DNA of 64,000 nt from Elusimicrobiota bacterium (GTDB taxonomy: Bacteria > Elusimicrobiota > Elusimicrobia > UBA1565 > UBA9628). Of the stretch, positions 5,590 through 47,029 are shown in pieces. Position 1 is the first letter of the stretch; each line of letters opens with the position of its first letter. The notes under the pieces are model-generated. The model was not told the origin of the DNA. It worked only from the letters and a program-made list of their open reading frames with translations, and searched no databases. Where the stretch lies: NCBI GenBank assembly GCA_016212825.1, contig JACRDS010000013.1, positions 31,677 to 95,676 of the forward strand, written 5' to 3'. The position numbers and the translations under genes are program-made.

Positions 5590-5626
5590 GCCGACGTAGC
5601 TCAGCGGTAGAGCAACCGCCTTGTAA
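5590..5626 (+). repeat. attL core: 37-nt 5' half of tRNA-Thr(UGU), truncated copy
   Basis: Identical base for base to 40617-40653. Identity ends exactly at the 3' end of the anticodon loop, and the following sequence cannot complete a cloverleaf. Confidence 0.85.
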
Positions 5627-13798: not shown

Positions 13799-16700
13799 AT
13801 GAGCCCCAAAGGCCTTAGACGCCTCGGCCTCGCAAGCGCAGCTTCAGCGCTCTGCCTCGCCCTGCCCGTCATCAAGGCCCTCGGCCAGACCAACTCCCTG
13901 TGCGCCGTCGTCAAACTCGAGATCAAGCAACAGGCCACCCTGGAGCGCGAAGGCTTCGACGCCCATCTCGTCATAGAGAACAACGTCATAGACCAACCCC
14001 TCACCAGCCTCAAGGTCCAGATCTACTTCAAGGACGCCGAAGGCAACCCTGCGGACCAAAGCTTCTTCGTCAAGGTCGCCACACTCACCGGCACCAACGC
14101 CGTAGACGGCACCGGCGTCGTCCAATCCTCCGGCACAGCCGACATCCACTGGCTCATCATCCCCGCCGCCGGCGCAGGCGGCAACAACCCAGCCGGCCAC
14201 CGCTACGGCGTCAGCGCGCTCATCACCAGCGTATCCAATGGCGCGCCCCAATCCGTCAAGACCTTCGACGCCTACATCACCGTCCACCCCCAGCCCCTCA
14301 TCAAGCTCGAATACGCCCTGCCCTACGAAGTCTTTGGCGACGAGCCCATGACCGAAGGCAGCATTGAGCCTGTCGAGCCCTTCCCATTGGCCGCACGCGT
14401 CACCAACATCGGCTACGGCGCCGCCAACAACTTCCAGATAGAATCCGCCCAGCCAAAGATCGTTGAGAACAAGCAGGGCCTCCTCGTGGACTTCAAGCTC
14501 ATCGGCACCCAGGTGGGGGGCAAGACCATCCCCGACACCTTGCTCATCCCCTTCGGCGACATCCAGCCCGGCGCCGTCAGCCAAGCCTCCTGGCTCATGA
14601 CCGCCACTCTCTCCGGACGGTTCATCTCCTTCACATCCACCTTCAGCCACGCCGCCGAGTTGGGCGGCCAGCTCACCTCCCTCATGCAGAGCGTCACCAC
14701 TTATACGCTCCTTAGGGACGTGCTGGTGGACCTGCCCGGCCGCGACCAAGTTCCCGACTATCTGGTCAATACCAGCATGGACCGCGAAGCCATGCAGGAC
14801 CTCCTCAATAGCGGAAGCCAGCCTCCGGCCGAGTTGATATTGGAGTCCGACCAAGCCCAGCCCCTGCCCGTCACCGAAGTCCCAGGCAGCCTCTCCGGCG
14901 GCATCGGAGGCACTAGCGCGGCACTCACCTATACCATGACTGGGGCTGTCGGCTCCAACATCTGGGTGCACAGCTACGCTCCCTGGCCCTACGGAAAGAA
15001 CGTCGTCCTGGCCTATGCCAAGCGCGGCGACGGCAAGCTGCTCAACACCAAGAACGTCTGGATCTCCAAGCACTTCCGCAAGTCCGACCTCTCCACCATA
15101 TACTGGATCAACATTCTCGACCTCACCGGCTCGACCAACACCTACACCCTCCAATTCGACCCCGCCGGACTGGACCTGCCGCCCGGTGCGGTCACGGACC
15201 TGGCCGCGGCCACCTACCCAAGCGGCGGCAGTCTGGCCCTATCCTGGAGCTCTCCCGGCGAGGACGGCTACACAGGCCAGCTCTTCGGCGGCCACGTCTT
15301 CATCGACGCCCAGCTCAGTTCGGCCGCGGCTTTCTCCCCGGCCAACTCCCAGGTGCGCTTCGCCACCAGCGCCGCCGCCGGCGGCTCCCAGACTTATCTG
15401 GCATCTGGCTTTATCGGAAACGCCACCTACTATGCTGCCATCTTCATACAGGACACCGGTGGCGGCATGTCCGGCCTCTCCAACCTGGCCACGGCCTATA
15501 CCCTGCCCAATCCTCCGCTGAACCTGGCCATATCATCCGTGTCGGCCTTCTCCATCGCCGCCAACTGGCAGGTCGGCAACAACAGCCTGCCCGTCACCTA
15601 TAGCCTCGGCATCTCCACGGCCATGGGCGGCGCCATCGTGGCCGCAAGCCCGCCCCAGGACTCCTTCAACCGCAGCTACACCTTCACCGGCCTCTTGCCC
15701 GGCACCACTTACTTCATCTATGGCTCGGCCAAGAATCCCGACAGCAGCGTGACCTCGCCCTTCTCCTTCATGGGTTCCACCCAGACTTTGCCCGGCCCGC
15801 GCGATGCCTTGCCGCCCAGGACCGCTTTGGCCGTGAACAGCCCGTCCGCGACAGGGGCGGACAACGTCCTGATCGTAGGCCGCGTCTCCACGTTCACCTT
15901 GACCTCCCTCGATGACGCCCTGGCCGTGGGCGACGGCACGGGCATGGGCACGGCCTTCCAGGTCCTGGCCGTTGACGGAATGGTCCGGCCCACCTTCACC
16001 AACCCCAGCCCGGCCCCAGGCCAGGTCTTTGCCAGCACGTTCTCCTTGGCTTCTGAGGCGGACGGCCTCTATGTGCTCGCCTACCACGGTGAGGATAGCC
16101 TGGGCAACCGCGAGGATGTCCATCTGGCCACCGTGGCCGTGGACAACACTCCGCCTGCCGCAGTCCTCACTTCCCCATCTTCAGCCTGCCAGGGCCTCTG
16201 CGGCGTGGTCAAGGGACGGCTCGATGTTCGCGGCTCGGCGGCGGATGAGCATCTTGCCTATTGGAGCCTGGAGGTGTCCTCGGGCGCTGACTATGCGCTC
16301 ATCTCCTCGGGAACGGCCGCATCCTCAGGCACTTTGGCGGTCTGGGACACGGTCGGCCTCACCGGTTGGCAGACCCTGCGCCTCACAGCCGTTGACGCGG
16401 TCCTCAACGTTGCGGTAGCCACCGCCTCTGTGTTCCTGGGCGAGCCTTCCGCTACCCTCATCCTGGGCGACAATACCGTATTCAATAAGCCCGCAGGCGT
16501 GGCCGTGGGCATGGACGGCAAGATCTACGCGGCTGACGCCAACAACGACCGCGTGGCCGTGTTCAGTGCCACAGGGACCTTCCTGGCGTCCTTCACAGGA
16601 TTCAAGAAGCCCAAGGCTGTCGCGGTGGATGCTTCCGGCAGCATCTTCGTGGCCGATACCAACGGCAGCAGCTTGGTCAAGCTCTCCACCTCAGGCCAGA

Positions 16701-18109
16701 TTCTCATGGCCGTGGGCCGGACCAAGAAAAAGAATGAAGGCTTTATCCCAGGCTCCGGATCGGGCGAGTTCAACAAGCCCCAGGGCGTGGCCCTGGACGA
16801 GGCAGGCAACATCTACGTCTCGGACACCAACAACCACCGGGTGCAGAAGCTCGGGCCGGACGGCAGCTTCAAGCTGGCCTTCCAGCTGCCTCCGGCCCCG
16901 GCGTGGTCCGGTGATGAGGACGACGGTGCGGACAGCTCCGGGCTGGGCCGGCCCGTGGGCATCGCCTTGGACGCCGCAGGCAACATCTATACGGCAGACC
17001 AGGCAGGAAGCCGCATCCTGAAGTTCGACCCGGCCGGGCTCCTGCTGGCCAGTTTCGGCGTGGGCATCACCTCCAGCCCCTTGGGCGTTGCGGTGAGCAG
17101 TTCTGGCGACTGCCTCTTCGCCTCGGATTCAGGCCATGACCGCATACTGCGCTTTGACGCCTCCGGCGAACTCCTGCTCGAGTTCAGCCTGGGCTTCAAC
17201 AAGCCTGCGGGCTTGGCCTTTGACGCAGGCCAGAGCCTCTTCGTCGCTGACCGCAACAACAACCGCATCGTCAAGATTGGAGCGCCTGCCGGACAGGCCG
17301 CGAAGGTCGTTTCGGGAGGCGAGAAGAACAAGACGGTCAAGGGGCGCATCACCAAGCAAGCCGGCGGCAGGCTCGACCGCGAGGACAAGGCCGCAGTGCT
17401 CATCCCGGCCCAGGCCTTGGCCGAGGACCTGGAGATCACCATCTCCTCGCCCGTGCTGCGCAGCGAGCTTGAAGAAGCCCTCAAGGCTCGCAAGCTCGGC
17501 CAGGCCAGCTTGGTCTCGGTCTCCACCGGTGTGGAGTACGGCCCCGAAGGCACGGTGTTCAACGCTCCCGTGACCCTGGTCCTGCCGTACGACCCGGTCG
17601 CGGTGAGCGCGGCCGGCTTGCGCGAGGCCGATCTTAAGGTCCACTACTGGAACCGGGACAGGCAGGAGTGGGAGGTCCTGACTTCCATCGTAGATGCGGG
17701 CGGCCGCGTGGTCATGGCCCAGACAATGCATTTCTCGCTCTATGAGGTGCTTGGCTCAGGTTCAGGAATGGGCGTGGCGGCCGCGGCCGACGAGGCCTTC
17801 GGTTATCGCGACGTCTACGCTTTCCCGAACCCGGCCCGACGCAGCAACCCCGTCATCCGGACCCAGGTGGGTCTGGCCGATTCCGTGGACGTGAACATCT
17901 ACGACATAGCGGGCAAGCTGGTCGGCTCCGGCAGCCTGACGGGCAGCCAGGTCCTTGACGACGGCAACGGCAAGGGGCCGCAGTACACCTACGATTACCT
18001 TTGGGACACCTCGAACGTGGGTTCCGGGGTCTACATCTATGCTGTGACGGCCAGGAAGGCAGGCTATTCGCCCATACGCAAACAAGGGAAGGTCGGCATC
18101 CTGAAATAG
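13799..18109 (+). CDS. 1436-aa secreted surface protein with FN3-like domains, NHL repeats and a FlgD-Ig/T9SS-type C-terminal domain
   Basis: Signal peptide. Repeated NKP.GVA.D..G.IYV.D..N.R(V/I) NHL units. C-terminal YAFPNPAR...VNIYDIAGKLV...GVYIYAV...GKVGILK matches the CTD/FlgD-Ig pattern. The start abuts the rhodanese stop. Confidence 0.8.
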   Translation: MSPKGLRRLGLASAASALCLALPVIKALGQTNSLCAVVKLEIKQQATLEREGFDAHLVIENNVIDQPLTSLKVQIYFKDAEGNPADQSFFVKVATLTGTNAVDGTGVVQSSGTADIHWLIIPAAGAGGNNPAGHRYGVSALITSVSNGAPQSVKTFDAYITVHPQPLIKLEYALPYEVFGDEPMTEGSIEPVEPFPLAARVTNIGYGAANNFQIESAQPKIVENKQGLLVDFKLIGTQVGGKTIPDTLLIPFGDIQPGAVSQASWLMTATLSGRFISFTSTFSHAAELGGQLTSLMQSVTTYTLLRDVLVDLPGRDQVPDYLVNTSMDREAMQDLLNSGSQPPAELILESDQAQPLPVTEVPGSLSGGIGGTSAALTYTMTGAVGSNIWVHSYAPWPYGKNVVLAYAKRGDGKLLNTKNVWISKHFRKSDLSTIYWINILDLTGSTNTYTLQFDPAGLDLPPGAVTDLAAATYPSGGSLALSWSSPGEDGYTGQLFGGHVFIDAQLSSAAAFSPANSQVRFATSAAAGGSQTYLASGFIGNATYYAAIFIQDTGGGMSGLSNLATAYTLPNPPLNLAISSVSAFSIAANWQVGNNSLPVTYSLGISTAMGGAIVAASPPQDSFNRSYTFTGLLPGTTYFIYGSAKNPDSSVTSPFSFMGSTQTLPGPRDALPPRTALAVNSPSATGADNVLIVGRVSTFTLTSLDDALAVGDGTGMGTAFQVLAVDGMVRPTFTNPSPAPGQVFASTFSLASEADGLYVLAYHGEDSLGNREDVHLATVAVDNTPPAAVLTSPSSACQGLCGVVKGRLDVRGSAADEHLAYWSLEVSSGADYALISSGTAASSGTLAVWDTVGLTGWQTLRLTAVDAVLNVAVATASVFLGEPSATLILGDNTVFNKPAGVAVGMDGKIYAADANNDRVAVFSATGTFLASFTGFKKPKAVAVDASGSIFVADTNGSSLVKLSTSGQILMAVGRTKKKNEGFIPGSGSGEFNKPQGVALDEAGNIYVSDTNNHRVQKLGPDGSFKLAFQLPPAPAWSGDEDDGADSSGLGRPVGIALDAAGNIYTADQAGSRILKFDPAGLLLASFGVGITSSPLGVAVSSSGDCLFASDSGHDRILRFDASGELLLEFSLGFNKPAGLAFDAGQSLFVADRNNNRIVKIGAPAGQAAKVVSGGEKNKTVKGRITKQAGGRLDREDKAAVLIPAQALAEDLEITISSPVLRSELEEALKARKLGQASLVSVSTGVEYGPEGTVFNAPVTLVLPYDPVAVSAAGLREADLKVHYWNRDRQEWEVLTSIVDAGGRVVMAQTMHFSLYEVLGSGSGMGVAAAADEAFGYRDVYAFPNPARRSNPVIRTQVGLADSVDVNIYDIAGKLVGSGSLTGSQVLDDGNGKGPQYTYDYLWDTSNVGSGVYIYAVTARKAGYSPIRKQGKVGILK

Positions 18110-18110
18110 C

Positions 18111-19034
18111 ATGAAGATAACCACTCTCGCCTTGCTGGCGCTTCTGACGCCCGCGGCAGTCCGGGGCGGCGAGACCGCGGCCTTCCTCAAGCTGGGCGTA
18201 GGCGCCCGGGCCGTGGGCATGGGAGGAGCCTACACGGCCTTGGCCAACGACGTCAACGCCCTGGGCTGGAACCCGGCTGGGCTCTCCTCTCTGAATAAGC
18301 GGGAACTGGGCGCCATGCACGCGGAGCTGGCAGCGCAGACCCGCTACGACTTCATAGGCTATGCCCAGCCCGTCAAGTACGGCACCCTTGGAGTCGGTGC
18401 TGTTTACCTGAGCCATGGCGGGCTGGAAGGACGCAGTGAGACTGGTGCTCCCACCGGCACCTACGGCGCCTCGGACCAGGCCGTGAGCCTGGGACTGGCA
18501 TCCCGACTGGACGCGGGCCTGCGCCTGGGCGCCAACGTCAAGTACATCAGAAGCAGCATCGCAAATGTCTCGGCGCAGAGCTTCGCCTTGGATCTGGGTG
18601 GGCAGTACGCTTTGAAAGGAGTCCGGGGCCCGGGTCTGCCTTTGCTAGGCGTGTCGGTCCAGAACCTGGGCCCCGGGATGAAATACCTGGACCAGACCTC
18701 GCAACTGCCCCTGACCATGGCGGCCGGCATAGGCTATCAGTTGCCCGTGGGCCTCACCTTTGCCATGGACTTCAAGCACAGGCCCCATAGCCGTGATTCA
18801 GAGCTCAGTGTAGGCACTGAATACGCCCTGCTGGCAAACTTCGCCTTGCGGGCCGGCTATGCCACGCAGAAGGCCTACAACGGCACCCGCGCCTCGGCGG
18901 GGGGATTCTCGGCCTTGAGCGGCTTCGCGACCGGCCTGGGCTTCAAGATGAAGGCCTACAGTCTGGACTACGCCTTCACCCCTGCCGGCGAAATGGGCAA
19001 CGTGCAGAGGTTCTCCCTCGGCGCCAGGTGGTGA
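18111..19034 (+). CDS. PorV/PorQ-family (TraF_2-like) outer-membrane beta-barrel protein
   Basis: Signal peptide, then LGVGARAVGMGGAYTALANDVNALGWNPAGL, the family N-terminal signature. Alternating beta-strand pattern with a terminal aromatic residue. Confidence 0.7.
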   Translation: MKITTLALLALLTPAAVRGGETAAFLKLGVGARAVGMGGAYTALANDVNALGWNPAGLSSLNKRELGAMHAELAAQTRYDFIGYAQPVKYGTLGVGAVYLSHGGLEGRSETGAPTGTYGASDQAVSLGLASRLDAGLRLGANVKYIRSSIANVSAQSFALDLGGQYALKGVRGPGLPLLGVSVQNLGPGMKYLDQTSQLPLTMAAGIGYQLPVGLTFAMDFKHRPHSRDSELSVGTEYALLANFALRAGYATQKAYNGTRASAGGFSALSGFATGLGFKMKAYSLDYAFTPAGEMGNVQRFSLGARW

Positions 19035-19046: not shown

Positions 19047-20384
19047 TCAGGTTCCCTGCTTCTTCAGCGTGGAGTATAGCAACCTGTTCGATATCTTGAG
19101 ACTGGACAGCGTCTTGATCTTCTTTCCGTGGTTTTCCGCGAGATTCCTGCGGATGACCTCGCCGATAAAGCGGTCCACGGTCTCAGGCAGGCCGTGGTCC
19201 AGGGCATAGCGGTACCAGACATCGTCCACGCAGACCCCGTCGGCCGACGGTCTGCCTGAGTCCTGGGCCAGATGCCGCCGCACCTGCTCCAAGGTCACAT
19301 GCCCCTCGACGCCGGCGGCCAACAACTCCACGAACTTCTTCAACTCCCGGGTATTTCCCGGCCAAGCGTGTTCGAGCAGGCAAGCCTTGGCCTCCGGGGC
19401 GAAGGAAAGCCGCTTGCCGCCCCGGGTGAAGAATCTGACGAGGGGCAGGATATCGCACTTGCGCTGGTACAGCGGCTTGAGGTTCACCGTGAAGCCGTGG
19501 ATGCGCTGGAAGAAATCGAAGCGCAGCCGCCCTTGAGCGATCAGCTTCTGCAGATCCTCCAGAGTGGCGCTGATGATGCGGAACTCGGAGGACTCAGGTT
19601 GGTCGGACCCCACCGGATAGAATGAGCGCTCCTCGATGGCCTTCAAGAGCTTGGTCTGCATGTTCAGGCTCATGGACCCAATCTCGTCGAGGAACAGGGT
19701 GCCCTTGTGCGCCTGCAGGAGCTTGCCCTTGCGGCTGTCCGCGGCGCCGGTGAAGGCCCCCTTCCTGTAGCCGAAGAGCTCCGCCTCCAGCAACTCTTCG
19801 GTATAGGCGGAGCAGTTGATGGCCACGAAAGCGCCTGCCCTGCGGGAGTGCTCGTGGATGAGCTGGCCCAGGCTCGTCTTGCCGGTTCCCGACGGCCCCA
19901 GTATCAAGATCGGCAGGTCCGAAGGGGCATACTTGGCGGCCTCGACGATGCTGGCCCTGGTGGCCGGGTCCTCGGTGACGAACTGGCGGGTGAAGACGAA
20001 ATCGGCGTTGAAGCCGGTCTTGCTCTGCCGGTACTTGGCGATGACTTCGCCGACATTGGCCTCCTCGTTGCCCTTGGCGTAGAAATCCTTGCACCCGAGG
20101 GCGTAGGCCTGCGTGACCACCTCCTCGGACTCCGAGGAGGACATGACCACGGGATAGATGCCCTTCTTGGCCGCGCGTGGGATGACCTTCAGGCCCGAGC
20201 ACTCATGGTCGTCCTCGCCCAGACGCAGGTCGATGAAGCAGATGTCGAAGCCGCCGGCGTCGAGAGCGTGGGAAGCCGCAGCCAAGTCCCCGGCCAACGT
20301 CACATCATGGCTGCCCAGGTGCTTGGCCATCGCTTTTTGGGCCAGCTTGTCGTCCTCGACCACGAGAATCCTGAGCTTTTCCAT
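19047..20384 (-). CDS. sigma-54-dependent response regulator (NtrC-type bEBP)
   Basis: Receiver domain, AAA+ Walker A GPSGTGKT, GAFTGA loop, and C-terminal Fis-type HTH. Confidence 0.9.
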   Translation of the reverse strand: MEKLRILVVEDDKLAQKAMAKHLGSHDVTLAGDLAAASHALDAGGFDICFIDLRLGEDDHECSGLKVIPRAAKKGIYPVVMSSSESEEVVTQAYALGCKDFYAKGNEEANVGEVIAKYRQSKTGFNADFVFTRQFVTEDPATRASIVEAAKYAPSDLPILILGPSGTGKTSLGQLIHEHSRRAGAFVAINCSAYTEELLEAELFGYRKGAFTGAADSRKGKLLQAHKGTLFLDEIGSMSLNMQTKLLKAIEERSFYPVGSDQPESSEFRIISATLEDLQKLIAQGRLRFDFFQRIHGFTVNLKPLYQRKCDILPLVRFFTRGGKRLSFAPEAKACLLEHAWPGNTRELKKFVELLAAGVEGHVTLEQVRRHLAQDSGRPSADGVCVDDVWYRYALDHGLPETVDRFIGEVIRRNLAENHGKKIKTLSSLKISNRLLYSTLKKQGT

Positions 20385-20499
20385 GAATGCAGCCTCCGTT
20401 TGAGCGGCTATTCTTTCAAATGAGAGATGGCCCCCTATTATACCCCACTTCCCGGCATCAGCAGGGTGCTTTTCCGCGCAATCCTGCGAGCGCAGTCCA

Positions 20500-20515
20500 T
20501 GGCACTCCGATTGCT
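20500..20515 (+). promoter_or_regulatory. sigma-54 (-24/-12) promoter TGGCAC-N5-TTGCT
   Basis: TGGCACTCCGATTGCT has exact consensus spacing. It lies 50 nt upstream of the 38-aa ORF and next to the divergent bEBP gene. Confidence 0.65.
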
Positions 20516-20565
20516 CCGCAAGGGGTGCATGTCGGCCATGAAATCAAAAACACGGAGGATTACAA

Positions 20566-20682
20566 ATGAAGAACATCGGCTCGCTGATGCAGGAACTCGG
20601 TCTCAGGATGGACGCGCAGAGCGCCACGATCTCCGCCGAGGCCTTGGAGGACGTCGAGGTCAACAGCATCCGGAAATACTAG
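20566..20682 (+). CDS. 38-aa candidate RiPP precursor peptide (not in ORF track)
   Basis: MKNIGSLMQELGLRMDAQSATISAEALEDVEVNSIRKY. GGAGG SD lies 8 nt upstream. The ORF sits directly upstream of the ABC exporter and RRE-rSAM/SPASM genes. Confidence 0.55.
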   Translation: MKNIGSLMQELGLRMDAQSATISAEALEDVEVNSIRKY

Positions 20683-20752
20683 AGTATCGCCCGTGGGGAA
20701 CGGCGTTGGCGGCGGGAAAGCCCGCCAACGTCTCCCCGCGAGGAGAGCCGAT

Positions 20753-22090
20753 ATGAGGTCCGTCTTCCTGACGCGCTGCACGGGGCTGAGCCTGGCCTTT
20801 CTGTTCCTGGAGCAGGCCATAGTGGCCTCCTCGACCATCTGGCTCGCGTTGCTGGCCCGGGCAGTCACCGGAGGAGGGGATATCCTCCCTCCTTTCATCG
20901 GCTTCATGTGCAGTCTCACCTTGGTGTACGTCCCGTCCATCTTCATGCGGACCTTCCTCGCCAAGGCGAAGGTCGCGGCGCTCGAACGATACCTGGACCT
21001 CTGCATGAAAGGACTGCGCTGCGTACCGCATCTCTCCCGCAGCCAGGCGTTCCAGCGCGAGAAGCGCCCCGCCATCGAGACGGAGTCTTTCCTGGTGATC
21101 GACGAGGCCTTCGATTTCGCGCAGCTCTCGCTGAGCCTCATCCTCAACGTGGCGTTCAACGTGTCCGCGCTCTGCATCGCCTTCGGCGCGCAGCTCCTGT
21201 GGGCGTACCTGCTTACGGCGGTCCTGGGAGTGGCCCTGACCGCGGCTTCCTCCGGGAAGGCGCGCCGCGACTCCGCTGCCATGCAGAAGACGCGCGGCAG
21301 AGCCTACGGAGCGCTGGCCGGAGCCTGGGACGCCGTTACCCTCGGCAACGCCTACAACCTGGGGCTTTGGAAGGCGGACTTCGAGGGCAAGGCCGCGGAC
21401 TACAGCTCGAAGTCCGCGGCCGCGGTCCGCAATCTCGAGGCCCTGACGAGCATGACCTTGTGGGTCTCGGTCATCCCCGTTGCCGCGGTCATGGCGCATG
21501 GGATGTTCTCGCCGACTTCCGACGCCGCGTTGAAGACCATGATCCTGGCTACGTTCCCTCGCCAGATCCAGGTCATCCAGTACATCGCGGAGATCGTCAA
21601 CTGCCTGCTCAAAGGCAGCGCCATCCGCGAGCGCGTCAGCGCCCTTGACCGGGCCATGACCGTCGGCAGTGCGACCGACGGCATGACAGGCAGGGTCCAG
21701 GTGGAGCGGCTTTCATGCGTCGATGCCGAGGGCCGGCGCATCGGGCTGGAGGGATTCGAGCCGCCCAAGGCGGGCCGCCTCACCGTGAGGGGGGACAACG
21801 GCTCCGGGAAATCCACCTTGCTCCTGGATCTCAAGCGCCGTCGGCCGGAGGGGTCCATCATCCTTCCGGCCCACAACCGGCTGCGCTTCGCGTCCGTGGC
21901 GGACGGGGACCTCTCCACGGGCCAGCGGCTCAGCCGCATCATGGACGAACTCTGCGGCGTCGAACCCCTGAGCCTGGTCCTCCTGGACGAGTGGGACGCC
22001 AACCTGGACAAGGAGAACATGGGCAGGATAGACGCCATGATCGACCGGCTGGCGCGGCGCTGCTGCGTCATCGAGGTCCGGCACCGATAG
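20753..22090 (+). CDS. ABC transporter, fused permease/ATPase (compact NBD)
   Basis: N-terminal multi-helix TMD. Walker A GDNGSGKST, signature LSTGQ, Walker B LVLLDEWD. ATG at 20753 with AGGAG SD. Confidence 0.75.
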   Translation: MRSVFLTRCTGLSLAFLFLEQAIVASSTIWLALLARAVTGGGDILPPFIGFMCSLTLVYVPSIFMRTFLAKAKVAALERYLDLCMKGLRCVPHLSRSQAFQREKRPAIETESFLVIDEAFDFAQLSLSLILNVAFNVSALCIAFGAQLLWAYLLTAVLGVALTAASSGKARRDSAAMQKTRGRAYGALAGAWDAVTLGNAYNLGLWKADFEGKAADYSSKSAAAVRNLEALTSMTLWVSVIPVAAVMAHGMFSPTSDAALKTMILATFPRQIQVIQYIAEIVNCLLKGSAIRERVSALDRAMTVGSATDGMTGRVQVERLSCVDAEGRRIGLEGFEPPKAGRLTVRGDNGSGKSTLLLDLKRRRPEGSIILPAHNRLRFASVADGDLSTGQRLSRIMDELCGVEPLSLVLLDEWDANLDKENMGRIDAMIDRLARRCCVIEVRHR

Positions 22091-22098
22091 GAGGCCGC

Positions 22099-23496
22099 AT
22101 GCTCAAACTCATGGAGGACGGCGCCGTCCAGGAATGCCGGCGGCCCGGCCCGGCGCAGGCCGGCGGCGGGACGGCCTATCCCGTCTACCATAGAGACCTG
22201 CACGGCGGCATGCTGGCGGCCAACTCCTTCATGGACGAGGTCTGGTTCGTGGAGGGCGGCGAACTCCTCGCGCACGGCAGGGACGCCATCCTCTCCCGCC
22301 TCGCTCAGGGCCCGGCGCCGGAGGCCTTGATCCGGGAGGCCGCCCTGCGGACCCAACGGCTGAAGGAGGCCGCGCCTTACGAACTCGCTTTTTGCCCGAC
22401 CTATTCCTGCAACCTCAGATGCGCCTACTGCTATCAGCAATTCGACCCCACGCTCGACAAGCGGGTCGTCAGCGACGAGAACCTCTCCAAGTTCCTCGCC
22501 TACGCCGGCGGGATGATAGACAAAGTCCGCGCCGCGCGGCCCGAGCGCCCCGTCGTCCTCCAGTTCTTCGGCGGAGAGCCGTTCACCCGGCCCGCCAAGC
22601 CCGTCATCAAGAAGCTCTTCGAGTTCTGCCGCGAGAGGAAGGTCCACGTCGCGGTGACGACCAACGGCGTCGGGGTTGACGACTTCTTCGACATCCTCCT
22701 GCCCTACCACGGCTACATCGCCAAGGTCGGGGTCACTCTCGACGGGGTGGGGGAGTTCCACGACAGCCGGCGCAAGAGCCGCGACGGCCGGGACACCTTC
22801 GACGGGATCGTCCGCAACATCAACGTGCTCCTGCGCGCGGGCATCCGCGTCATGACCTCCCTGACGCTCGACAAGAGCAACCTCGGCCAAGCGGAGCGGT
22901 TCTTCGCCTTCGCCGAGGCCCAAGGCTGGAGCGACAACCCCCTGGTCGAGCTTTCCGTGGCTCGGGTGGACGACCGCAAGTACGAGACCGGATACGACGC
23001 CATCATGTCCGAGGCGCGGCTCTTCAAGGAGCTGCTCGACCTCAACAGCCGCAAGCCTTTCCCGGCGAACATCCGCTTCGCCTTCCTCAAGACCAGCCTC
23101 CCGCTGGCCGCGAGACTCCGCAGCGCCTTCAATCAGAACGAGGCGGGCCGCGACAAGTTCAGGTACTGCTGGTCCTGCTCCGGCCTGGACAGCATGGTCT
23201 ACGTCGATTCCGGGCTCGATGTCTACCGCTGCACCTACACCGTGGGCGACAAGAGGTTCCGGATCGGGACCCTGGCCGGAGGATTCTCCACCGAGGAATG
23301 GGAGAAGCACTGGACCTGGGGCCGCAGGGAATGCCGCGAATGCCCGATAGGGGGCTACTGCTCCGGCGGCTGCCGGCTATCCGCTCAGAAGGACTTCGAG
23401 CGCAACTGCCGGGAAGAAAAGGCCAACTTCGAATACCTCATAGAGCATGTCGTCGCCCCCAAGCTCGCCGGCATGCTTCCCGCCAAGGCCGCCTGA
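22099..23496 (+). CDS. radical SAM/SPASM peptide-modifying enzyme with N-terminal PqqD-like RRE
   Basis: CNLRCAYC is a CX3CX2C motif. C-terminal CWSC...C and CRECPIGGYCSGGC (CX2CX5CX3C) form the SPASM motif. About 85 aa N-terminal extension resembles a PqqD-type recognition element. Confidence 0.85.
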   Translation: MLKLMEDGAVQECRRPGPAQAGGGTAYPVYHRDLHGGMLAANSFMDEVWFVEGGELLAHGRDAILSRLAQGPAPEALIREAALRTQRLKEAAPYELAFCPTYSCNLRCAYCYQQFDPTLDKRVVSDENLSKFLAYAGGMIDKVRAARPERPVVLQFFGGEPFTRPAKPVIKKLFEFCRERKVHVAVTTNGVGVDDFFDILLPYHGYIAKVGVTLDGVGEFHDSRRKSRDGRDTFDGIVRNINVLLRAGIRVMTSLTLDKSNLGQAERFFAFAEAQGWSDNPLVELSVARVDDRKYETGYDAIMSEARLFKELLDLNSRKPFPANIRFAFLKTSLPLAARLRSAFNQNEAGRDKFRYCWSCSGLDSMVYVDSGLDVYRCTYTVGDKRFRIGTLAGGFSTEEWEKHWTWGRRECRECPIGGYCSGGCRLSAQKDFERNCREEKANFEYLIEHVVAPKLAGMLPAKAA

Positions 23497-23574: not shown

Positions 23575-23590
23575 TGGCATTCGGATTGCT
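23575..23590 (+). promoter_or_regulatory. second sigma-54 promoter TGGCAT-N5-TTGCT
   Basis: TGGCATTCGGATTGCTCCGCA is nearly identical to the 20500 promoter, including the shared GATTGCTCCGCA. Confidence 0.55.
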
Positions 23591-23673
23591 CCGCATCAGG
23601 TGAAGGCGCAAGCCTTCGACCTGTGTAGCTTGGGGAATCGGCCCCAGGGCATCCACGATCCCGCCGGAACGGG

Positions 23674-24186
23674 ATGAGACCACGGGAGAAGACCAAACTC
23701 GTTTCTCTCTTCCGTCCCGGCCGCAGGAAGGCCGGACCGGAAGCGGGAGACGCGCCGAGGGGTCAAATGGATACGAAAGAGCCTGTATGCGTACAAGCAG
23801 CGAATCGGTCCGCGGCCTGCGCGGCCAGCCGTCCGGGCCCGGCCGTGGAGGAGGTGATGCGCCGCCGGACCTCCAGGGAGCGATGGGTCATCCTGATGAG
23901 GCATGTCCGCGGCCAGTACCCGCACGGGATCATGTACGGGGTGAACGTCGCCGACGGCATCATCGTCTCCTGCGACAAGCTGCAGCCTTGCTTGTCCTTG
24001 GAGCCCTCCCCGGCGGCGGGCGACGGAGCCGGGAAGGCCTTCGACGCCAATTGGGAGAAGCTGGAAGCCCTGTGCGGACGCATGGGAACGGGGCGTCTGA
24101 GCGAACTGAGGTTCAACGAGGGAAGGCCCGTATCCGTGCTGCCCCCGGCGCGGGGCTGGAGGTTCGGACGCAGAACTGATAACTGA
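23674..24186 (+). CDS. hypothetical protein
   Basis: Track ORF downstream of the second sigma-54 promoter. Alternative start at 23767 (MDTKE). No domain recognised. Confidence 0.45.
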   Translation: MRPREKTKLVSLFRPGRRKAGPEAGDAPRGQMDTKEPVCVQAANRSAACAASRPGPAVEEVMRRRTSRERWVILMRHVRGQYPHGIMYGVNVADGIIVSCDKLQPCLSLEPSPAAGDGAGKAFDANWEKLEALCGRMGTGRLSELRFNEGRPVSVLPPARGWRFGRRTDN

Positions 24187-24452: not shown

Positions 24453-25052
24453 ATGGCCTTTAAGAACACCGTTGCACCCGCCGTCGCCGTGCCCGCCTCA
24501 GAGAAGAACGCCGAGCTCGATCGGGAAGCCGCCGCAATCCTCGTCGACAGCCTGATCGAGGGCGCCGAGGAAGCCGTCCGCCAGGACTCCCACAGGGAGT
24601 TCTACGCCGCCAACCACAGCAAGGCCCTGGTCATCGCCCTCGCGGCGCTCAAGGACCGCTGCGAGGCTGAGGATGCCGTGGCGCAGACCTACGTGGAGCT
24701 CCTCAAGGGCCGCACCAGGCCCGCATGCTTCTTCCACGCGCTCAGGTGCAACATCCTCGACCGCAAACGCCGGCTGCGCCGCGAACAGTCTCTGTTTGAG
24801 CCGGCCGACCTAGCCTTCGATTCCAGGAACGCGTCCGGCGAGGACCGGCTGGCCGGGGGTGACAGCGAGGAGTTCGCGGCCGAGCCGGCGTCCCCGCAGC
24901 CGGAAGACCAGGACCCCTTGGCGATACTGGTCCAACGGGAGGAAGCCGCCGCGCGCCTTGCCATGGTGGAGCGCGCCATGGCCGACCCCCGGTGGCGGTA
25001 CGTCAAAGGCCGGAAGTGGGCGCGGCCGCTCGTCGGCGATGTGCGGAAATGA
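24453..25052 (+). CDS. hypothetical protein with sigma-70 region-2-like segment
   Basis: EFYAANHSKALVIALAALKDRCEAEDAVAQTYVELLKG resembles ECF sigma region 2. No clear region 4. First gene of the co-directional T4SS gene train. Confidence 0.45.
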   Translation: MAFKNTVAPAVAVPASEKNAELDREAAAILVDSLIEGAEEAVRQDSHREFYAANHSKALVIALAALKDRCEAEDAVAQTYVELLKGRTRPACFFHALRCNILDRKRRLRREQSLFEPADLAFDSRNASGEDRLAGGDSEEFAAEPASPQPEDQDPLAILVQREEAAARLAMVERAMADPRWRYVKGRKWARPLVGDVRK

Positions 25053-25166
25053 CGGGCTCAAGCGAATATTGTGTGCAGGGTGACTTTGCGGGCAGCCCGG
25101 TCGCCAGTCGGTGAAAACTCGGGGAGCAAATCCCCACCTGCCCGACAGAACGCAGGAGGTGGAAGA

Positions 25167-25709
25167 ATGGACCAGTCGGCGACGCGGACGTGCGGAAAGC
25201 CGGACATCGGGGATGGGGCGGGAAGGAAGCCGCGCTTCCTCAAGGTGCGGTTCTACCTGCCGCACCAGGACATGGTCAGCCTGGAGGAGGAGCGCCTCAG
25301 GCTCATCAAGGAGGGCCACGACGTGAGCCTCAGCAGGCTCATCTCCGAGGCCATCCGGCATCACATCCAGACCGGCCGGCGCCAAGCGGCGGGCGGCGCG
25401 GCCCTGGCCGCGCTGCTGGCCTTCGGCCTGTTGGCGCCGGGCCTGGCCGGGGCCCAGTCCTACGGCTCGCAGATCACGCAGGCAGGCCAGGCGCTCTACT
25501 CCTGGATCCGCAGCATCGGGGCCGTCATCCTGGCCATCGGCATCTCGGGGGCGGGTTTCCAGATGGCGGTGGCGCATGACCGGGAGGCCATGAAGAAGTT
25601 CTTCTACGTCATCCTGGGTGGGCTCATCGTGTTCCTGGCCCCTTCGTTCGTCTCCCTCATCCAGGGCGTGGCCGGTTCCGCGCAGTCGCTCAACATGTCG
25701 GGGCAGTGA
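25167..25709 (+). CDS. VirB2/TrbC-type pilin with N-terminal ribbon-helix-helix-like extension
   Basis: AGGAGG SD precedes the ATG at 25167. Residues ~25-68 fit an RHH pattern (KVRFYLP...VSLSRLISEAIRHHI). These are followed by the signal sequence ALAALLAFGLLAPGLAGA and two hydrophobic helices separated by AHDREAMKK, the VirB2 topology. Confidence 0.6.
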   Translation: MDQSATRTCGKPDIGDGAGRKPRFLKVRFYLPHQDMVSLEEERLRLIKEGHDVSLSRLISEAIRHHIQTGRRQAAGGAALAALLAFGLLAPGLAGAQSYGSQITQAGQALYSWIRSIGAVILAIGISGAGFQMAVAHDREAMKKFFYVILGGLIVFLAPSFVSLIQGVAGSAQSLNMSGQ

Positions 25710-25978
25710 GCGGGATGAACACCTACAAGGCGCTCGACTACCACCTCAAGACCTTCGGCTTCTGGCCTGGGGACTTGATCGGCACGTTCCTGGGCTTCTG
25801 CGTGGTCCACTGGGTCTTCAACAGCTTCCTGCTGGACCTGGTGGTAGTCGGGCCCTTGCTTTTCGCGGCGTTCAAGACGAGGAAGCGCGCTCCCGCCTAT
25901 GTCGGGTCGCTGTGGCGCTTCGCCACCACGGCCCGGCGCTTCAGCGTGGGGCTGGGCAGGGAGGGCTGCGGCCGATGA
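25706..25978 (+). CDS. VirB3/TrbD-like small membrane protein
   Basis: About 90 aa with a two-helix hydrophobic core. Its stop overlaps the VirB4 start (ATGA). The call rests on position and size. Confidence 0.55.
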   Translation: MSGMNTYKALDYHLKTFGFWPGDLIGTFLGFCVVHWVFNSFLLDLVVVGPLLFAAFKTRKRAPAYVGSLWRFATTARRFSVGLGREGCGR

Positions 25979-28425
25979 TTCTGCCTACCTTGACGCGCGA
26001 CTTGTTCCAGACCCGGCGCGAGCCCTGCGCGCACAACCTGCTCAACCTGTGGGCTCTGGAGGACGGAGCCTTGGTCGGCGTGGACCTGCAATACACCAAG
26101 CTCTTCAGGCTCACCTGTCCGGACGCCCTCTTCGCAAGCGAAGCGGAGCTGGAGCAGCACGCGGTGGCCCTCGGCCGCCTCCTTGACGGCCTGCCCGAGA
26201 ACTGCACGGCCCAGCTCATCGTCAGGGTGCGCTGGGACGCGGGCAGCAAGATCGAGGAGTACGCCTCCTACGAGCGGCCGGAGGGGGACATGCTGCGCTT
26301 CATCGTGGGCGCGAGGGTGGATTTCCTGCGGAAACTGCCGTTCAAGCGAGTGGAGCACTTCCTGGCCCTGAGCACCTATGCGGAGAAGACGGACCTCATG
26401 AAGCTGGGCCTGCGGCCCCTGGCGCTCAAGGTCCCGGACCTGGGCCGCGAGCTGGCCGGCCTGCATGAGCGCAGGATAGAGGGGCTCAGGAAAGTCTGCG
26501 CCACCGCCTCGGCCGCATTGCGCGACGCCAAGGTCGCGGCTTTGCCGCTCTCCGAGGCTGAGTCTTTGGCCTTCCTCTACGGCCGCCTCAATCCGGCCTT
26601 GGCCCAGCACACCCCGCCTCCGCCCCTGCGCAAGTCCGCGACCTTGCGCAGCCAGCTGGCGCTCAACGCCTGGGACTGCGGCTTCGACACCTTGACCGTG
26701 GACGGCCACCACCACCGGGCGGTCAACCTGGTGGTCAGGCCGGGCGGGCTCGACGGCCGGGCCATGGCCGCCTTGGCGGACCAGGTGCCGGGAGACTTCG
26801 ACCTGGTCATCGCCGTGCACAGCCTCTCGCAGGAGAAGGCGCAGCGCGAGGTGGAGTGGAACTCCACCTCGGCCGCGGTCATTGGCGGGCTGAGCATGTT
26901 CACACGCTACCACGAGGCCGACCTCAAGTGCGAGGACGCGGACGCCCTGCTGGCCCATGTGAAGTCCTCCTGCCAGAAGCTCTACCTCATGAGCTGCCAC
27001 CTGGTCCTGCGCGACGTGGACTTGAAGGCCCTGACGCGCAGCACGGACCAGGCCATCCAGGCCCTGCGCCGGCTCGACGACGCGGTGGGGGTGGTGGACG
27101 ACATGAACCACCTGCCGCTCTTCCTGGCGTCCTTGCCCGGCCATTCCCATCTCAATCCCCGCGCGCACCTGGTCCACACCGAGGCCGCGGCGCGCTTCCT
27201 GACCATGAGTTCGGGCTGGGACGGCTGTCCATGGCCGCAGTTCATGACCCCGGGAGACGACGGCAAGGCCTTGGGCATAGACCTCTTCTCCCCGGAGCTG
27301 ACCGCCAAGCACTCCCTCATCCTGGGGGTGTCCGGTGAGGGTAAGAGCGTGCTGACCAACTCGCTGCTGACCAGCTTCTTCAGCGCGGACGAGAGCCACA
27401 ACGTCATCGTCATAGACGACGGCGGCTCCTACAGGCGTCTGTGCGGCCTCTTGGGCGGGCAGTACCTTGAGCCCACCTTGGACGGCACCTACGCCTTCAA
27501 CCCCTTCCTGGCCCGCGAGTACGCCTTCGACGAAGCCGGCCGGCTCGACGCGGACTTCCTCTCCTTCATGACCTTGCTGGTCCAGCTCATGGTGCACAAG
27601 GCCGACCTGAGCAACAACCAGAAGTCCATCATCCAAAGGTGCGTGCTGGCGGCATACGAGAGCGGCAAGAGCCGGACCCCCATTCTGGCCGACCTGCGCG
27701 AAGCCTTCAGGGCCTTCCGGGGCGACGAGGAGGATGAGGCCCTGGCCCGGAGCTTCTACAAGGATCTGGACCTCTGGACCGAGGGCACCTACGGCCGGCT
27801 GCTCAACCGGCCGGGGACCTTCGACGCGGCCTCGCGCTTCATCGTCTTCGACCTCAACAAGATGACGCAGGAGGACCTCAAGCCCGTGCTCCTGCTCATT
27901 ATCAAGAGCGTCATCCATCCCAAGCTGGCGGACAAGAGCCTGCGCAAGGTGATCGCCTTGGACGAGGTGTGGAAGTTCCTGCGCGAGAAGGCCGGGGCCG
28001 ACCTGGCGGCCGAGTGGTACAAGACCGGCCGGCGCTTCAACGCCGCGGTCATGGTGGTCACCCAGTCGGCAGAGGACCTGCTGGCCAGCAAGGCGGCGGA
28101 GGCCATCACTCATAACTCCACGGTGAAGTGGATCCTCAACCTGGGCGGGGGCTACGAGAAGCTGGCGGACCTCAAGCTCTCGGCCGAAGAGATCGAGGCG
28201 GTCAAAAGCCTGGGCAAGAACGTGGACCGCTCGCGCTTCCGCAAGGTGTTCCTGCGCTTCGGCGAGCGCAAGGCCGTGATCCGCAACCAGCTCTCACCCA
28301 CCGAGTACTGGCTCTACACCACGGACCCCAACGACGTGAACCGGGAGGCCGCCCTGCGCGAGGCCCACCCGGAGTGGGGCGCGGTGGAGCTCCTGCGCGC
28401 TCTGGCCGGAGGGGCCCGTGCTTAG
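25975..28425 (+). CDS. virB4: type IV secretion ATPase VirB4/TrbE family
   Basis: 816 aa. Walker A GVSGEGKS, Walker B VIALDEVWKF, VVTQS motif, conserved N-terminal VirB4 architecture. Confidence 0.9.
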   Translation: MILPTLTRDLFQTRREPCAHNLLNLWALEDGALVGVDLQYTKLFRLTCPDALFASEAELEQHAVALGRLLDGLPENCTAQLIVRVRWDAGSKIEEYASYERPEGDMLRFIVGARVDFLRKLPFKRVEHFLALSTYAEKTDLMKLGLRPLALKVPDLGRELAGLHERRIEGLRKVCATASAALRDAKVAALPLSEAESLAFLYGRLNPALAQHTPPPPLRKSATLRSQLALNAWDCGFDTLTVDGHHHRAVNLVVRPGGLDGRAMAALADQVPGDFDLVIAVHSLSQEKAQREVEWNSTSAAVIGGLSMFTRYHEADLKCEDADALLAHVKSSCQKLYLMSCHLVLRDVDLKALTRSTDQAIQALRRLDDAVGVVDDMNHLPLFLASLPGHSHLNPRAHLVHTEAAARFLTMSSGWDGCPWPQFMTPGDDGKALGIDLFSPELTAKHSLILGVSGEGKSVLTNSLLTSFFSADESHNVIVIDDGGSYRRLCGLLGGQYLEPTLDGTYAFNPFLAREYAFDEAGRLDADFLSFMTLLVQLMVHKADLSNNQKSIIQRCVLAAYESGKSRTPILADLREAFRAFRGDEEDEALARSFYKDLDLWTEGTYGRLLNRPGTFDAASRFIVFDLNKMTQEDLKPVLLLIIKSVIHPKLADKSLRKVIALDEVWKFLREKAGADLAAEWYKTGRRFNAAVMVVTQSAEDLLASKAAEAITHNSTVKWILNLGGGYEKLADLKLSAEEIEAVKSLGKNVDRSRFRKVFLRFGERKAVIRNQLSPTEYWLYTTDPNDVNREAALREAHPEWGAVELLRALAGGARA

Positions 28426-32347: not shown

Positions 32348-33192
32348 GCCTGATGTTCCTGCGGTCCTTCCTGCTCGGCCTGGGCATGCTGGTCTTGAAG
32401 GGCGCTGCCAATGCCAACATGTGTGCCCTTCCCCAGTTGGGCGCGGCCGGCGCTGGGACGCTCTCCGGCAGTGCCAAGTCGGCGGTGGTCACGGCTGGCC
32501 TGGCCGCGGGTGTGGCGGTCGCGCCGGGCATGGTGCTCTCCATCGGCCTGCAGTCTGTGTCGCAGGGGTCCTTCGCCTGCTTTTTGTCCACGGATGCGCC
32601 TCTCGCCGTGGCAGCCTTGCCCGGCACGTATTCGGTCCAACGCCTGGTGCCCAGCCCAGGCCGCACCATGACCCTGCAATGGAGCGAGGCTGCCGGCCTC
32701 CTGCCCGTCACCTACGAGGTATTCCTGGGGGAGTCTCCCTCCGCTCTGGCCAGCGTCGCCCGGGGCCTGGCAGCGCCGAGCCACACCCTCTCCAGCCTGG
32801 AGTTCATGCGTCCCTACTACTGGCGCGTCATGGCCTCGGACCAGTTCGGGCGGTACTCACAGAGCGGGATCTACTCCTTCTCCATAGCCCCGGCCCAGGA
32901 TCGCATGATAGCGGCGCCCAACCCGTTCCACCCGGGCAAAGTCGGCATCACCTTCATGTGGCTCATGCCCGGTCCGGGCTGGGCCGAGCTCGAGGTGTTC
33001 GCCTTGCCTGAGGCGCGTCGGGTCTTCAGGACCCGGCTGGAAGGCCTGCAGGACGGAGTCAACACCTTTCTCTACGACGGCCGGGATAGCGACGGTCGGC
33101 TGCTCTCCAACGGAATCTACACAGTCCGAATGAGGATGAAGGGAGCCAATGGCAACAAGACAGAGCTTCTCAAGATTATCGGCGTGCGTTAG
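32344..33192 (+). CDS. secreted FN3-like protein with FlgD-Ig/T9SS-type C-terminal domain
   Basis: Signal peptide, an FN3-like block (TLQWSE..PVTYEVFLGES...YYWRVMA), and a C-terminal APNPFHPG...LEVFAL...NGIYTVRM...LKIIGVR CTD pattern. Confidence 0.6.
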   Translation: MSLMFLRSFLLGLGMLVLKGAANANMCALPQLGAAGAGTLSGSAKSAVVTAGLAAGVAVAPGMVLSIGLQSVSQGSFACFLSTDAPLAVAALPGTYSVQRLVPSPGRTMTLQWSEAAGLLPVTYEVFLGESPSALASVARGLAAPSHTLSSLEFMRPYYWRVMASDQFGRYSQSGIYSFSIAPAQDRMIAAPNPFHPGKVGITFMWLMPGPGWAELEVFALPEARRVFRTRLEGLQDGVNTFLYDGRDSDGRLLSNGIYTVRMRMKGANGNKTELLKIIGVR

Positions 33193-36206: not shown

Positions 36207-36889
36207 TGATGAGATACGCGGCGCTGTTCCTGCTTCTTGCACGGCCTGGAGCGGCCGAGGACCTGGTGGACCCCACGGCGCTCTTCAGCCAGGCGGCGCA
36301 GGCGGCCAAGCCTGCCGCGGCCGAGCGGCCGCCGGCCTGCCCGGGCGCGGACGACTTCTTCCTGCCCACGGGCTTCACCTTCCCGGCCCTGCTTCCCGAC
36401 GCCATCTTCAGCTACAACACCGCGGCCCCGGTCAACGCCGTGCTGGAAGACGACGTGAAGTCCCGCGGCCGCGTGATCCTGCCCAGGCACACGCGCCTCA
36501 TCGGCGGCGTCAACGCCCTGCACACGCTGGACCGGGTCAACATCGCCTGGCGCCTGGCGGTACTGCCCGAGGGGTGCGAGTTCGAGTTCTCGGGCATCGC
36601 CCTCTCGGCGGACGACGGCTCGGGAGGAGTGAAAGGCAAGGTGGAGAAGCATGAGGATTCGGTCGCGGCGCAGGTGGCCCTTAAGTCCATCCTCAACGGC
36701 GCACAGCAGGCCGCGGCCATAGCAGTCCCGGTCGAAGGCGCGCTGGCCTCCGGGTTCTCCGGCGAGGCCAACCTGATGCTCGACCAGAACATAGCCAAGG
36801 TCAAGAGCCTGGAGTCCATCTACATCCGCGAAAGGACGCAGATCCGCGTCTTGGTCATGAGGAGGTTCGCCCGAGATGGCGGAAAATGA
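36203..36889 (+). CDS. VirB10/TrbI-like protein (short form)
   Basis: Signal-like N-terminus. The core VLEDDVKSRGRVILPRHTRLIGG...RVNIAWRLAVLPEG...DDGSGGVKGKVEKH follows the TrbI/VirB10 C-terminal domain pattern. It lacks the usual long Pro-rich N-terminal region. Confidence 0.6.
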   Translation: MMMRYAALFLLLARPGAAEDLVDPTALFSQAAQAAKPAAAERPPACPGADDFFLPTGFTFPALLPDAIFSYNTAAPVNAVLEDDVKSRGRVILPRHTRLIGGVNALHTLDRVNIAWRLAVLPEGCEFEFSGIALSADDGSGGVKGKVEKHEDSVAAQVALKSILNGAQQAAAIAVPVEGALASGFSGEANLMLDQNIAKVKSLESIYIRERTQIRVLVMRRFARDGGK

Positions 36890-40616: not shown

Positions 40617-40653
40617 GCCGACGTAGCTCAGCGGTAGAGCAACCGCCTTGTAA
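40617..40653 (+). repeat. attR core (37 bp, 5' half of the intact tRNA-Thr)
   Basis: Identical to 5590-5626. Confidence 0.85.
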
Positions 40654-40688
40654 GCGGTAGGTCGCCGGTTCGATCCCGGCCGTCGGCT
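40617..40688 (+). tRNA. tRNA-Thr (anticodon UGU)
   Basis: Hand-folded cloverleaf: acceptor GCCGACG/CGUCGGC, D arm GCUC-AGCGGUA-GAGC, anticodon stem ACCGC/GCGGU with loop CUUGUAA, T arm GCCGG-UUCGAUC-CCGGC. CCA is not encoded. Confidence 0.9.
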
Positions 40689-44967: not shown

Positions 44968-44973
44968 GGCACC

Positions 44974-46976: not shown

Positions 46977-47029
46977 GGCCTTTCGTTGAAGGGCGCGGCG
47001 GCTTTGCCGCCGCGCAACCCGCGACCCCT

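Follow-up and report, generated by a model that had tools for sequence, protein, structure and literature searches.

The window considered here is a stretch of 64,000 nucleotides from contig JACRDS010000013.1 of an Elusimicrobiota bacterium, and it contains a four-gene biosynthetic cluster for a small enzyme-modified peptide, located on a mobile element. The cluster comprises the gene of an NtrC-type activator of 445 aa (19047..20384, minus strand) and, divergent from it on the plus strand, a peptide operon in which the gene of a 38-aa precursor (20566..20682) is followed by those of a compact fused ATP-binding cassette (ABC) half-transporter of 445 aa (20753..22090) and of a radical S-adenosylmethionine (SAM) maturase of 465 aa (22099..23496), a remote relative of the ryptide maturase RrrB. 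The initial annotation, made from the DNA letters and their translations, had read the region as a cluster for a peptide that is made on the ribosome and modified after translation (RiPP). All the parts that it named (activator, promoter, 38-aa open reading frame, ABC protein and radical SAM enzyme) are in place, and its reading was upheld on each point that could be tested: precursor, exporter, maturase with a RiPP recognition element (RRE) and a SPASM region, sigma-54 promoter, and integrative element of the conjugative type. The account that we favour, with somewhat more confidence than doubt, is that this is a ryptide-like RiPP cluster, gated by sigma-54 and yielding an exported product, on an element integrated at a tRNA-Thr gene. 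Rather than a new class, the cluster represents a divergent branch of the ryptide superfamily, set apart by another regulator, another exporter and a core that contains a single Arg.

The maturase, its substrate and the exporter

The affiliation of the cluster is clearest in the maturase. Its top NCBIfam family is NF040899 (ryptide maturase RrrB), with 221.2 bits against 93 for the next family, and the same family is the best match of distant relatives that share 30–45% identity with it; the enzyme and these relatives range from 208 to 296 bits, and all other families stay at or below 104. P0126, a bona fide member whose cluster holds a "ryptide class RiPP maturase" record from Amygdalobacter indicium, reaches 845 bits and is 28% identical to the window enzyme over 438 aa (BLASTP, E 2e-67). 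In an exhaustive phmmer search, run with the window enzyme against 1.84 billion representative proteins, its own clade appeared as one 50%-identity cluster, accompanied by about 45 further clusters at E <= 1e-40 and 100 at E <= 1e-30, and the bona fide ryptide maturase ranked approximately 27th, inside the superfamily of about 45 clusters. These counts imply that the superfamily is small and that the named ryptide family makes up one of its branches. The close relatives form about a dozen clusters with 55–74% identity. A genome scan with back-translated radical SAM/SPASM patterns gave, among the matches listed, relatives of at most 28% identity; the patterns are generic, and the scan therefore says nothing on distribution.

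Ten Cys residues are invariant in 15 aligned enzymes: the three of the CX3CX2C motif that holds the SAM cluster (C104, C108 and C111) and seven in the C-terminal SPASM region, of which C412, C415, C421 and C425 form the CX2CX5CX3C motif and C357, C378 and C437 complete the set. The Pfam SPASM and PqqD models give no match on the maturase, and the assignment of the N-terminal recognition element consequently rests on the predicted structure: in the AlphaFold2 model (pLDDT 82, pTM 0.84), residues 30–91 fold into three strands followed by three helices, which is the RRE topology. The complete SPASM motif and the PqqD-like recognition element noticed at the outset are thus both accounted for, the former by the Cys motifs and the latter as a predicted domain of the model. 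Among the full-length fold matches in the PDB, CteB and SuiB come first, each with the order RRE, radical SAM domain and SPASM region, while a sulfatase maturase, which has no such N-terminal domain, ranks lower. Together with the score on NF040899, these folds group the enzyme with RiPP maturases and not with sulfatase maturases; an identity as anaerobic sulfatase maturase was rejected on account of the scores (72 against 221 bits) and of the conserved precursor. The recognition domain has also been observed in another setting: the first 100 residues of a 407-aa protein (P0017) are 56% identical to it, the remainder consists of methyltransferase domains, and the same contig encodes an ABC-like protein with 64% identity to that of the window. 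This protein looks like a fusion of recognition domain and methyltransferase, or like the result of a deletion of the radical SAM part.

The precursor gene, present as a single copy in the 64 kb, has a GGAGGA ribosome-binding site and an ATG at 20566, and encodes MKNIGSLMQELGLRMDAQSATISAEALEDVEVNSIRKY, a leader followed by a putative C-terminal Arg-Lys-Tyr core. An open reading frame of 36–38 aa with a ribosome-binding site occupies the same position in five close loci (L001, L003, L004, L088 and L090), that is, in 6/6 with the window, and L090 has two identical 36-aa precursor genes in tandem (4262–4525). The peptides of this close clade begin with a motif like N-I-x-x-L-M-Q-E-L-G, vary in the middle and all end in [ST]-[IV]-R-x-Y-stop; within the leader, K/N-x-I-x-x-L-M-x-E is conserved. 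Judged from this comparison of sequences, the small open reading frame is a real gene, as the initial annotation had supposed, and it stays beside homologous radical SAM genes: a conserved precursor was found in all 12 loci examined, the six close ones among them. Locus L090 also has an M16 peptidase gene upstream; the pair of M16 peptidase genes in the window (44781–48445) lies outside the mobile element.

The 12 loci span the enzyme superfamily and supplied 13 precursors in total. Arg-x-Tyr is present in 13/13 and constitutes the last three residues in 11; the Tyr and the Arg two positions before it (Tyr-2) are the sole invariant residues. The six further superfamily loci have precursors that end in PRRY, RRMY, PPRRY, GRRY, PRRYGVSVTK and SRRYVTTL, and in the last two (L092 and L095) the Tyr is not terminal. 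The bona fide ryptide precursor, a 41-mer encoded directly upstream of the maturase that scores 845 bits, is MLIEFTKEELLQMKSIDELMEAAENNDCEFVPGEPIIRRRY and ends in IIRRRY; that of the window ends in SIRKY, and its leader MKNIGSLMQE resembles MKSIDELME of the 41-mer. In its length (about 40 aa) and in the Arg that stands two positions ahead of its C-terminal Tyr, the window peptide thus agrees with a ryptide precursor. None of the precursor peptides matched a Pfam or NCBIfam family even at E = 10, and the initial annotation had held that the peptide fits no described class; this view was not borne out, as the enzyme is a remote RrrB relative and the peptide ends in the Arg-x-Tyr found throughout the superfamily.

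The sequence of the third protein of the operon gave weak or marginal family matches: Pfam ABC_tran and ABC_membrane remained below threshold and a sequence search of the PDB gave nothing useful. The AlphaFold2 model (pLDDT 87.6) combines six long transmembrane helices with a nucleotide-binding domain of some 130 aa, around half the usual length, and Foldseek matches it to MsbA, IrtAB, CydDC and the peptide exporter McjD, with TM-scores of 0.6–0.66. Walker A (GSGKST), signature (LSTGQ), Walker B (LLLDEWD) and H-loop (C-terminal RHR, H444) motifs are present and invariant in the family, whose members have 440–480 aa and share NGSGKS...LDEWDANLD...C-terminal E-x-R-H. Model and fold matches therefore agree with the fused ABC permease/ATPase first described from the translation. 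The gene lies between those of the precursor and the radical SAM enzyme in L001, L003, L004, L088 and L090, and after the latter in L091; in the superfamily as a whole a transporter is linked throughout, be it a compact ABC protein, a full-length ABC protein or a protein of the major facilitator superfamily.

Control of the peptide operon

The activator contains the Pfam domains Response_reg, Sigma54_activat (E 5e-57) and AAA_lid_14, and its translation shows the GAFTGA motif of the AAA+ domain and a C-terminal Fis-type helix-turn-helix, which confirms the divergent NtrC-type regulator proposed before. It falls below the cut-off of all the named NCBIfam regulators and equivalogs, and for this reason it is classified as a member of the NtrC family of unassigned specificity.

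In the divergent intergenic region of 181 nt, the promoter TGGCACTCCGATTGCT (20500..20515, plus strand) is an exact match to the consensus, TGGCAC-N5-TTGCT, with GG at -24 and GC at -12 at canonical spacing, 50 nt 5' of the ATG and hence 5' of the whole operon. The pattern TGGCAY-N5-TTGCT occurs twice in the window, compared with 0.09 occurrences expected, and two were reached in 1 of 100 shuffles. In the alignment of the intergenic regions of the six close loci the promoter is the best-conserved block, with an invariant GCA-N7-TTGCTC; GGCAY-N5-TTGCT is found in five of them, the sixth (L003) being degenerate, with AGCAT at -24. The promoter called in the initial annotation is accordingly real by three measures: its consensus, its enrichment over shuffled sequence and its conservation in relatives.

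The description of the activator as an orphan response regulator fared less well. The part that stood is that no histidine kinase was found, either among the approximately 35 window open reading frames scanned or by tblastn with the kinase of a related locus, a check that was not exhaustive. The association itself is weaker than had been stated, since the activator gene is adjacent and divergent in only two of the six loci (the window and L003) and the other four keep the promoter without an adjacent activator. The two adjacent activators are 58% identical, a value near the 62% of the corresponding radical SAM enzymes. The L003 locus, from Elusimicrobia RBG_16_66_12, presents a further peculiarity: its activator is followed by a 67-aa open reading frame and then by a 346-aa protein in which the only domain is Sigma54_DBD (1677–2917), and its peptide promoter has AG in place of GG at -24. 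It is conceivable that this locus has a cluster-specific sigma-54 paralogue with altered recognition of the -24 element.

Two further elements of the region may contribute to control. An AT-rich imperfect palindrome, TTTCAAATGAGA (20414..20425), situated 86 nt 5' of the -24 element, is a tentative candidate for the upstream activating sequence (UAS) to which the activator would bind. The candidate was derived from the cross-locus alignment and a regular expression: TTTC-N4/5-GARA occurs 77–108 nt 5' of the -24 element in 5/6 loci, with four occurrences in the 64 kb, and an inverted-repeat tool found nothing in the intergenic region of the window. The other element is a strong stem-loop directly 3' of the precursor stop codon (20687..20746, plus strand). 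RNAfold gives -43.7 kcal/mol for 20683–20760, the 3' arm overlaps the ABC gene's ribosome-binding site, and in all six close loci the precursor gene is followed by an equivalent hairpin, to which L004 and L090 add a T-run. On the basis of the predicted fold and its conservation, the hairpin may act as a partial terminator or mRNA stabiliser, and it probably has a part in setting the ratio of precursor to enzyme.

NtrC-family enhancer-binding proteins of myxobacteria drive natural-product genes from -24/-12 promoters, and the window offers a similar arrangement. A full-text search of the literature returned no report of a radical SAM RiPP operon driven by sigma-54, which is absence of evidence only. 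The promoter occurs in none of the Firmicute-type loci examined; one of these (L094) encodes a regulator of the RNPP type, which is consistent with the quorum-sensing control of streptococcal ryptides (PMC13361665).

The predicted product and competing explanations

The sequence of events that we propose would begin with the phosphorylated activator, which would bind the AT-rich site approximately 86 nt upstream and open the sigma-54 promoter complex, so that transcription of the precursor, ABC and radical SAM genes would be tightly gated by a signal. The hairpin would probably keep the precursor transcript in excess and leave the ABC gene with a partly masked ribosome-binding site. In the maturase, the N-terminal recognition domain would bind the leader through K/N-x-I-x-x-L-M-x-E, the SAM cluster would abstract a hydrogen atom from the Arg36 side chain, and a carbon-carbon bond would form between Arg36 and the ring carbon of Tyr38 ortho to the hydroxyl. 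The product would be a small macrocycle of Arg, Lys and Tyr, and the electron would be handled by the two SPASM clusters. The compact half-transporter, as a homodimer, would export the peptide, and a protease encoded elsewhere would remove the leader. The cluster itself would travel as cargo of a 35-kb element with type IV secretion genes.

An Arg-Tyr carbon-carbon macrocycle appears, from the sequences compared, to be the likeliest product chemistry. In the reference system, RrrA is a 41-mer in which RrrB forms a C-terminal Arg-Tyr cross-link (PMC9389541), and the enzyme rejected Arg-to-Lys and Tyr-to-Phe substitutions (PMC7670169), which fits the invariance of both residues. Only the Arg at Tyr-2 is invariant, and this is therefore the residue predicted to react, in a ring smaller than 16-membered.

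The resemblance to ryptides (RrrA/RrrB, from streptococci and other Firmicutes) extends to several levels: NF040899 is the best family by a wide margin, the domain order of the maturase is the same, the precursor has about 40 aa, ends in Arg-x-Tyr and has a similar leader motif, its gene lies directly 5' of those for biosynthesis, and the cluster includes the gene of an exporter. The differences are also considerable. The enzymes share 28% identity; ryptide precursors have RRRY or RRY where the window has the single-Arg IRKY; their ABC protein has 540–580 aa and is encoded after the enzyme, whereas the compact 445-aa protein of the window is encoded between precursor and enzyme; their regulation is by Rgg/SHP or RNPP quorum sensing (PMC13361665), in contrast to sigma-54 and a response regulator; and the host of the window cluster is an elusimicrobial bacterium, in which the cluster lies on an element of the conjugative type. 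Streptide (StrA/StrB, SuiA/SuiB) offers a more distant likeness: it is also made from a small precursor by one SPASM maturase and has a transporter, and SuiB is one of the top full-length structural matches, N-terminal recognition domain included. The structure-based identity is 15–16%, the streptide link joins Lys and Trp instead of the predicted Arg and Tyr, and the window peptide lacks the KxxxW motif.

A number of observations weigh against the favoured account. The maturase does not reach the 600-bit cut-off of NF040899, and at 28% identity and 221 bits the comparison has to be read with caution, given that remote SPASM relatives often differ in chemistry. The RRR motif of the reference precursor is missing: the window clade has one Arg (R-K/I/Q/L-Y) and Ile or Val at Tyr-3. 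Accounts of the reference chemistry, too, are inconsistent: reviews place the cross-link at the gamma-carbon of Arg, in a 16-membered ring (PMC9389541), or at the delta-carbon (PMC7670169, PMC11851443); counting atoms, a 16-membered ring needs the gamma-carbon of an Arg at Tyr-3, precisely the position occupied by Ile or Val here. Nucleotide differences in the small open reading frame show no clear third-position excess in a codon-position test, for which reason its coding status rests on the conserved frame, length, termini and context of ribosome-binding site and start. Neither an rpoN gene nor a cognate kinase was seen in the window. The ABC protein has no peptidase domain and the cluster encodes no leader protease. 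Finally, a methyltransferase of about 260 aa is encoded 3' of the radical SAM gene in four of the close loci (L003, 7662–8225; L004, 7368–8165; L088, 4235–5017; L090, 7408–8208) and a different methyltransferase in L001; no methyltransferase or remnant was detected in the window, which has a second promoter and a riboswitch at that position, and the product may consequently be an incomplete version of that of its relatives or differ from it.

A rival reading is a RiPP cluster in which the enzyme performs another chemistry on the C-terminal Tyr and Arg36 serves for recognition only; the candidate reactions are an oxidative decarboxylation like that of MftC, a cross-link from Ile/Val or Ser/Thr to Tyr, or a C-O ether. 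The match to NF040899 is far below its cut-off, the [ST]-[IV] before the Arg is also conserved in the close clade, and TIGR03962, the mycofactocin radical SAM family, gives a weak match of 55 bits; in mycofactocin maturation the free C-terminal Tyr is a feature of the substrate. In the wider superfamily, nevertheless, [ST]-[IV] is not conserved and all 13 precursors keep the Arg at Tyr-2, the internal Tyr of L092 and L095 argues against decarboxylation as a shared reaction, and the cluster has no equivalents of MftB, MftD or MftE. We regard this alternative as unlikely, albeit one to be taken seriously. It is very unlikely, in turn, that the peptide gives rise to a cofactor or signal used inside the cell, in the manner of mycofactocin or pyrroloquinoline quinone (PQQ), with some other role for the ABC-like protein. 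Both of these compounds arise from short Tyr-containing precursors modified by SPASM enzymes. In the mycofactocin (MftA/MftC) and PQQ (PqqA/PqqE) systems, a SPASM enzyme acts on a Tyr at or near the C-terminus of a short peptide, whose binding depends on a recognition domain, and the products are intracellular redox cofactors. The very short predicted core and the unusually small nucleotide-binding domain would be compatible with such a role, which is opposed by the transporter linked across the superfamily, by the likeness of the ABC model to exporters of peptides and lipids (McjD included), and by the lack of downstream oxidoreductases or peptidases in the cluster. The cluster also differs from these two systems in the weak family score (55 bits for mycofactocin), the lack of their accessory genes and the presence of an exporter. 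That the small open reading frame is not the substrate at all, being incidental or regulatory beside an enzyme that acts on a protein or a small molecule as anaerobic sulfatase maturases do, is hardly credible. Structures of such maturases are among the fold matches and the open reading frame has no third-position bias; against this, its position, length, ribosome-binding site and C-terminal motif are kept beside enzymes with as little as 30% identity, L090 contains it as two identical copies in tandem, the best full-length folds are RiPP maturases with an RRE, and the sulfatase maturase family scores just 72 bits.

The integrative element and its surroundings

The claim of the initial annotation that the cluster rides on a conjugative element is borne out by the boundaries and the content of the surrounding DNA. 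The first 37 nt (40617–40653) of a tRNA-Thr(TGT) gene (40617..40688, plus strand) are exactly repeated at 5590..5626 (plus strand), where ARAGORN finds no tRNA, and the gene of a tyrosine recombinase (Phage_integrase, 39351–40493) adjoins the tRNA gene. Between the repeats are the genes of a TrbC pilin (25071–25709), a TraC/VirB4-like type IV secretion ATPase (25618–28425) and a coupling protein with a TrwB/TraG-D_C domain (36876–38765). The cluster at 19–23.5 kb lies between the repeats and hence inside an integrative element of 35 kb with conjugation genes. No relaxase family was matched among the window open reading frames scanned, several of which lack any family. The boundary repeat corresponds to the 5' half of tRNA-Thr through the anticodon loop and not to the usual 3' end, and a promoter-like TTGCGG-N17-TATAAT precedes the left copy immediately on its 5' side; this arrangement points to the left copy as the original 5' half, now displaced, and to the element as the source of the 5' half in the intact gene.

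The related clusters have other surroundings: L088 is flanked by insertion sequences, L006 and L095 are near resolvase genes, and no transfer genes are near L004, which is part of a long contig. The cluster moves, and it does not always do so on this element. In the window, a protein of the PorV/PorQ outer-membrane family (18111–19034) is encoded beside a 1436-aa surface protein with NHL repeats, the two occupying 13799–19034, and a second PorV/PorQ-family protein is encoded at 33149–35038 of the element, cargo that suggests type IX-like secretion or surface display on an element of the conjugative type. A 1133-aa protein with TPR repeats and a radical SAM domain (771–4172) lies outside the element and is unrelated to the cluster.

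Downstream of the cluster, 80 nt 3' of the radical SAM stop codon, there is a second sigma-54-type promoter, TGGCATTCGGATTGCTCCGCA (23575–23595), near-identical to that of the precursor, TGGCACTCCGATTGCTCCGCA. Directly 3' of it is the aptamer of a 2'-dG-II (2'-deoxyguanosine) purine riboswitch (23618–23688; 74.9 bits, gathering score 60, E 1.8e-17). On the same strand follow an open reading frame of 139 aa (23767–24186), another of 199 aa (24453–25052), and then the pilin and VirB4 genes. The 139-aa frame has no Pfam or NCBIfam family and no plasmid match, and is unlike the gene 3' of the radical SAM gene in L003; the 199-aa product has a weak match to sigma factors of the extracytoplasmic function type (E 4e-4, far below the cut-off) and may be a regulator of the transfer genes. 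Neither a riboswitch in eight related RiPP loci nor a UAS-like motif 5' of the second promoter was found, and the riboswitch is for these reasons assigned to the mobile element and not to the RiPP system. It could be imagined that the activator drives both near-identical promoters, that the second, gated by 2'-deoxyguanosine, heads the transfer operon, and that the peptide would be made in step with conjugation; we consider this quite improbable. If it were true, the peptide might be a signal or a weapon deployed at transfer of the element, and a nucleoside of DNA breakdown would be an input to horizontal transfer. The window has one more pairing of this type: a third sigma-54-like site, TGGCACACGGTCTGCT, with one mismatch, lies directly 5' of a riboswitch of the cyclic di-GMP-I class (52986–53081, 46.8 bits; region 52956–53081), downstream of which an open reading frame without a family runs to 54158.

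In 2017 the 2'-dG-II class had 12 members, all of them metagenomic and none assigned to a phylum (PMC5473149). With the aptamer of the window, the class gains a host phylum, Elusimicrobia, and a context at the head of the transfer-gene block of an element. With regard to the peptide, the findings extend the current understanding of a known class and do not overturn it. To our knowledge, ryptides have been characterised solely from streptococcal clusters controlled by quorum sensing; the enzyme-substrate pair described here belongs to a wider, small superfamily that reaches Elusimicrobia and is defined by an invariant Arg-x-Tyr, and the comparison predicts the reacting Arg (Tyr-2) and a possible minimal ring of three residues. 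The cluster also provides an example of a RiPP operon that is wired to sigma-54 and a response regulator, through a promoter conserved across its relatives, and that is carried as cargo of an element of the conjugative type.

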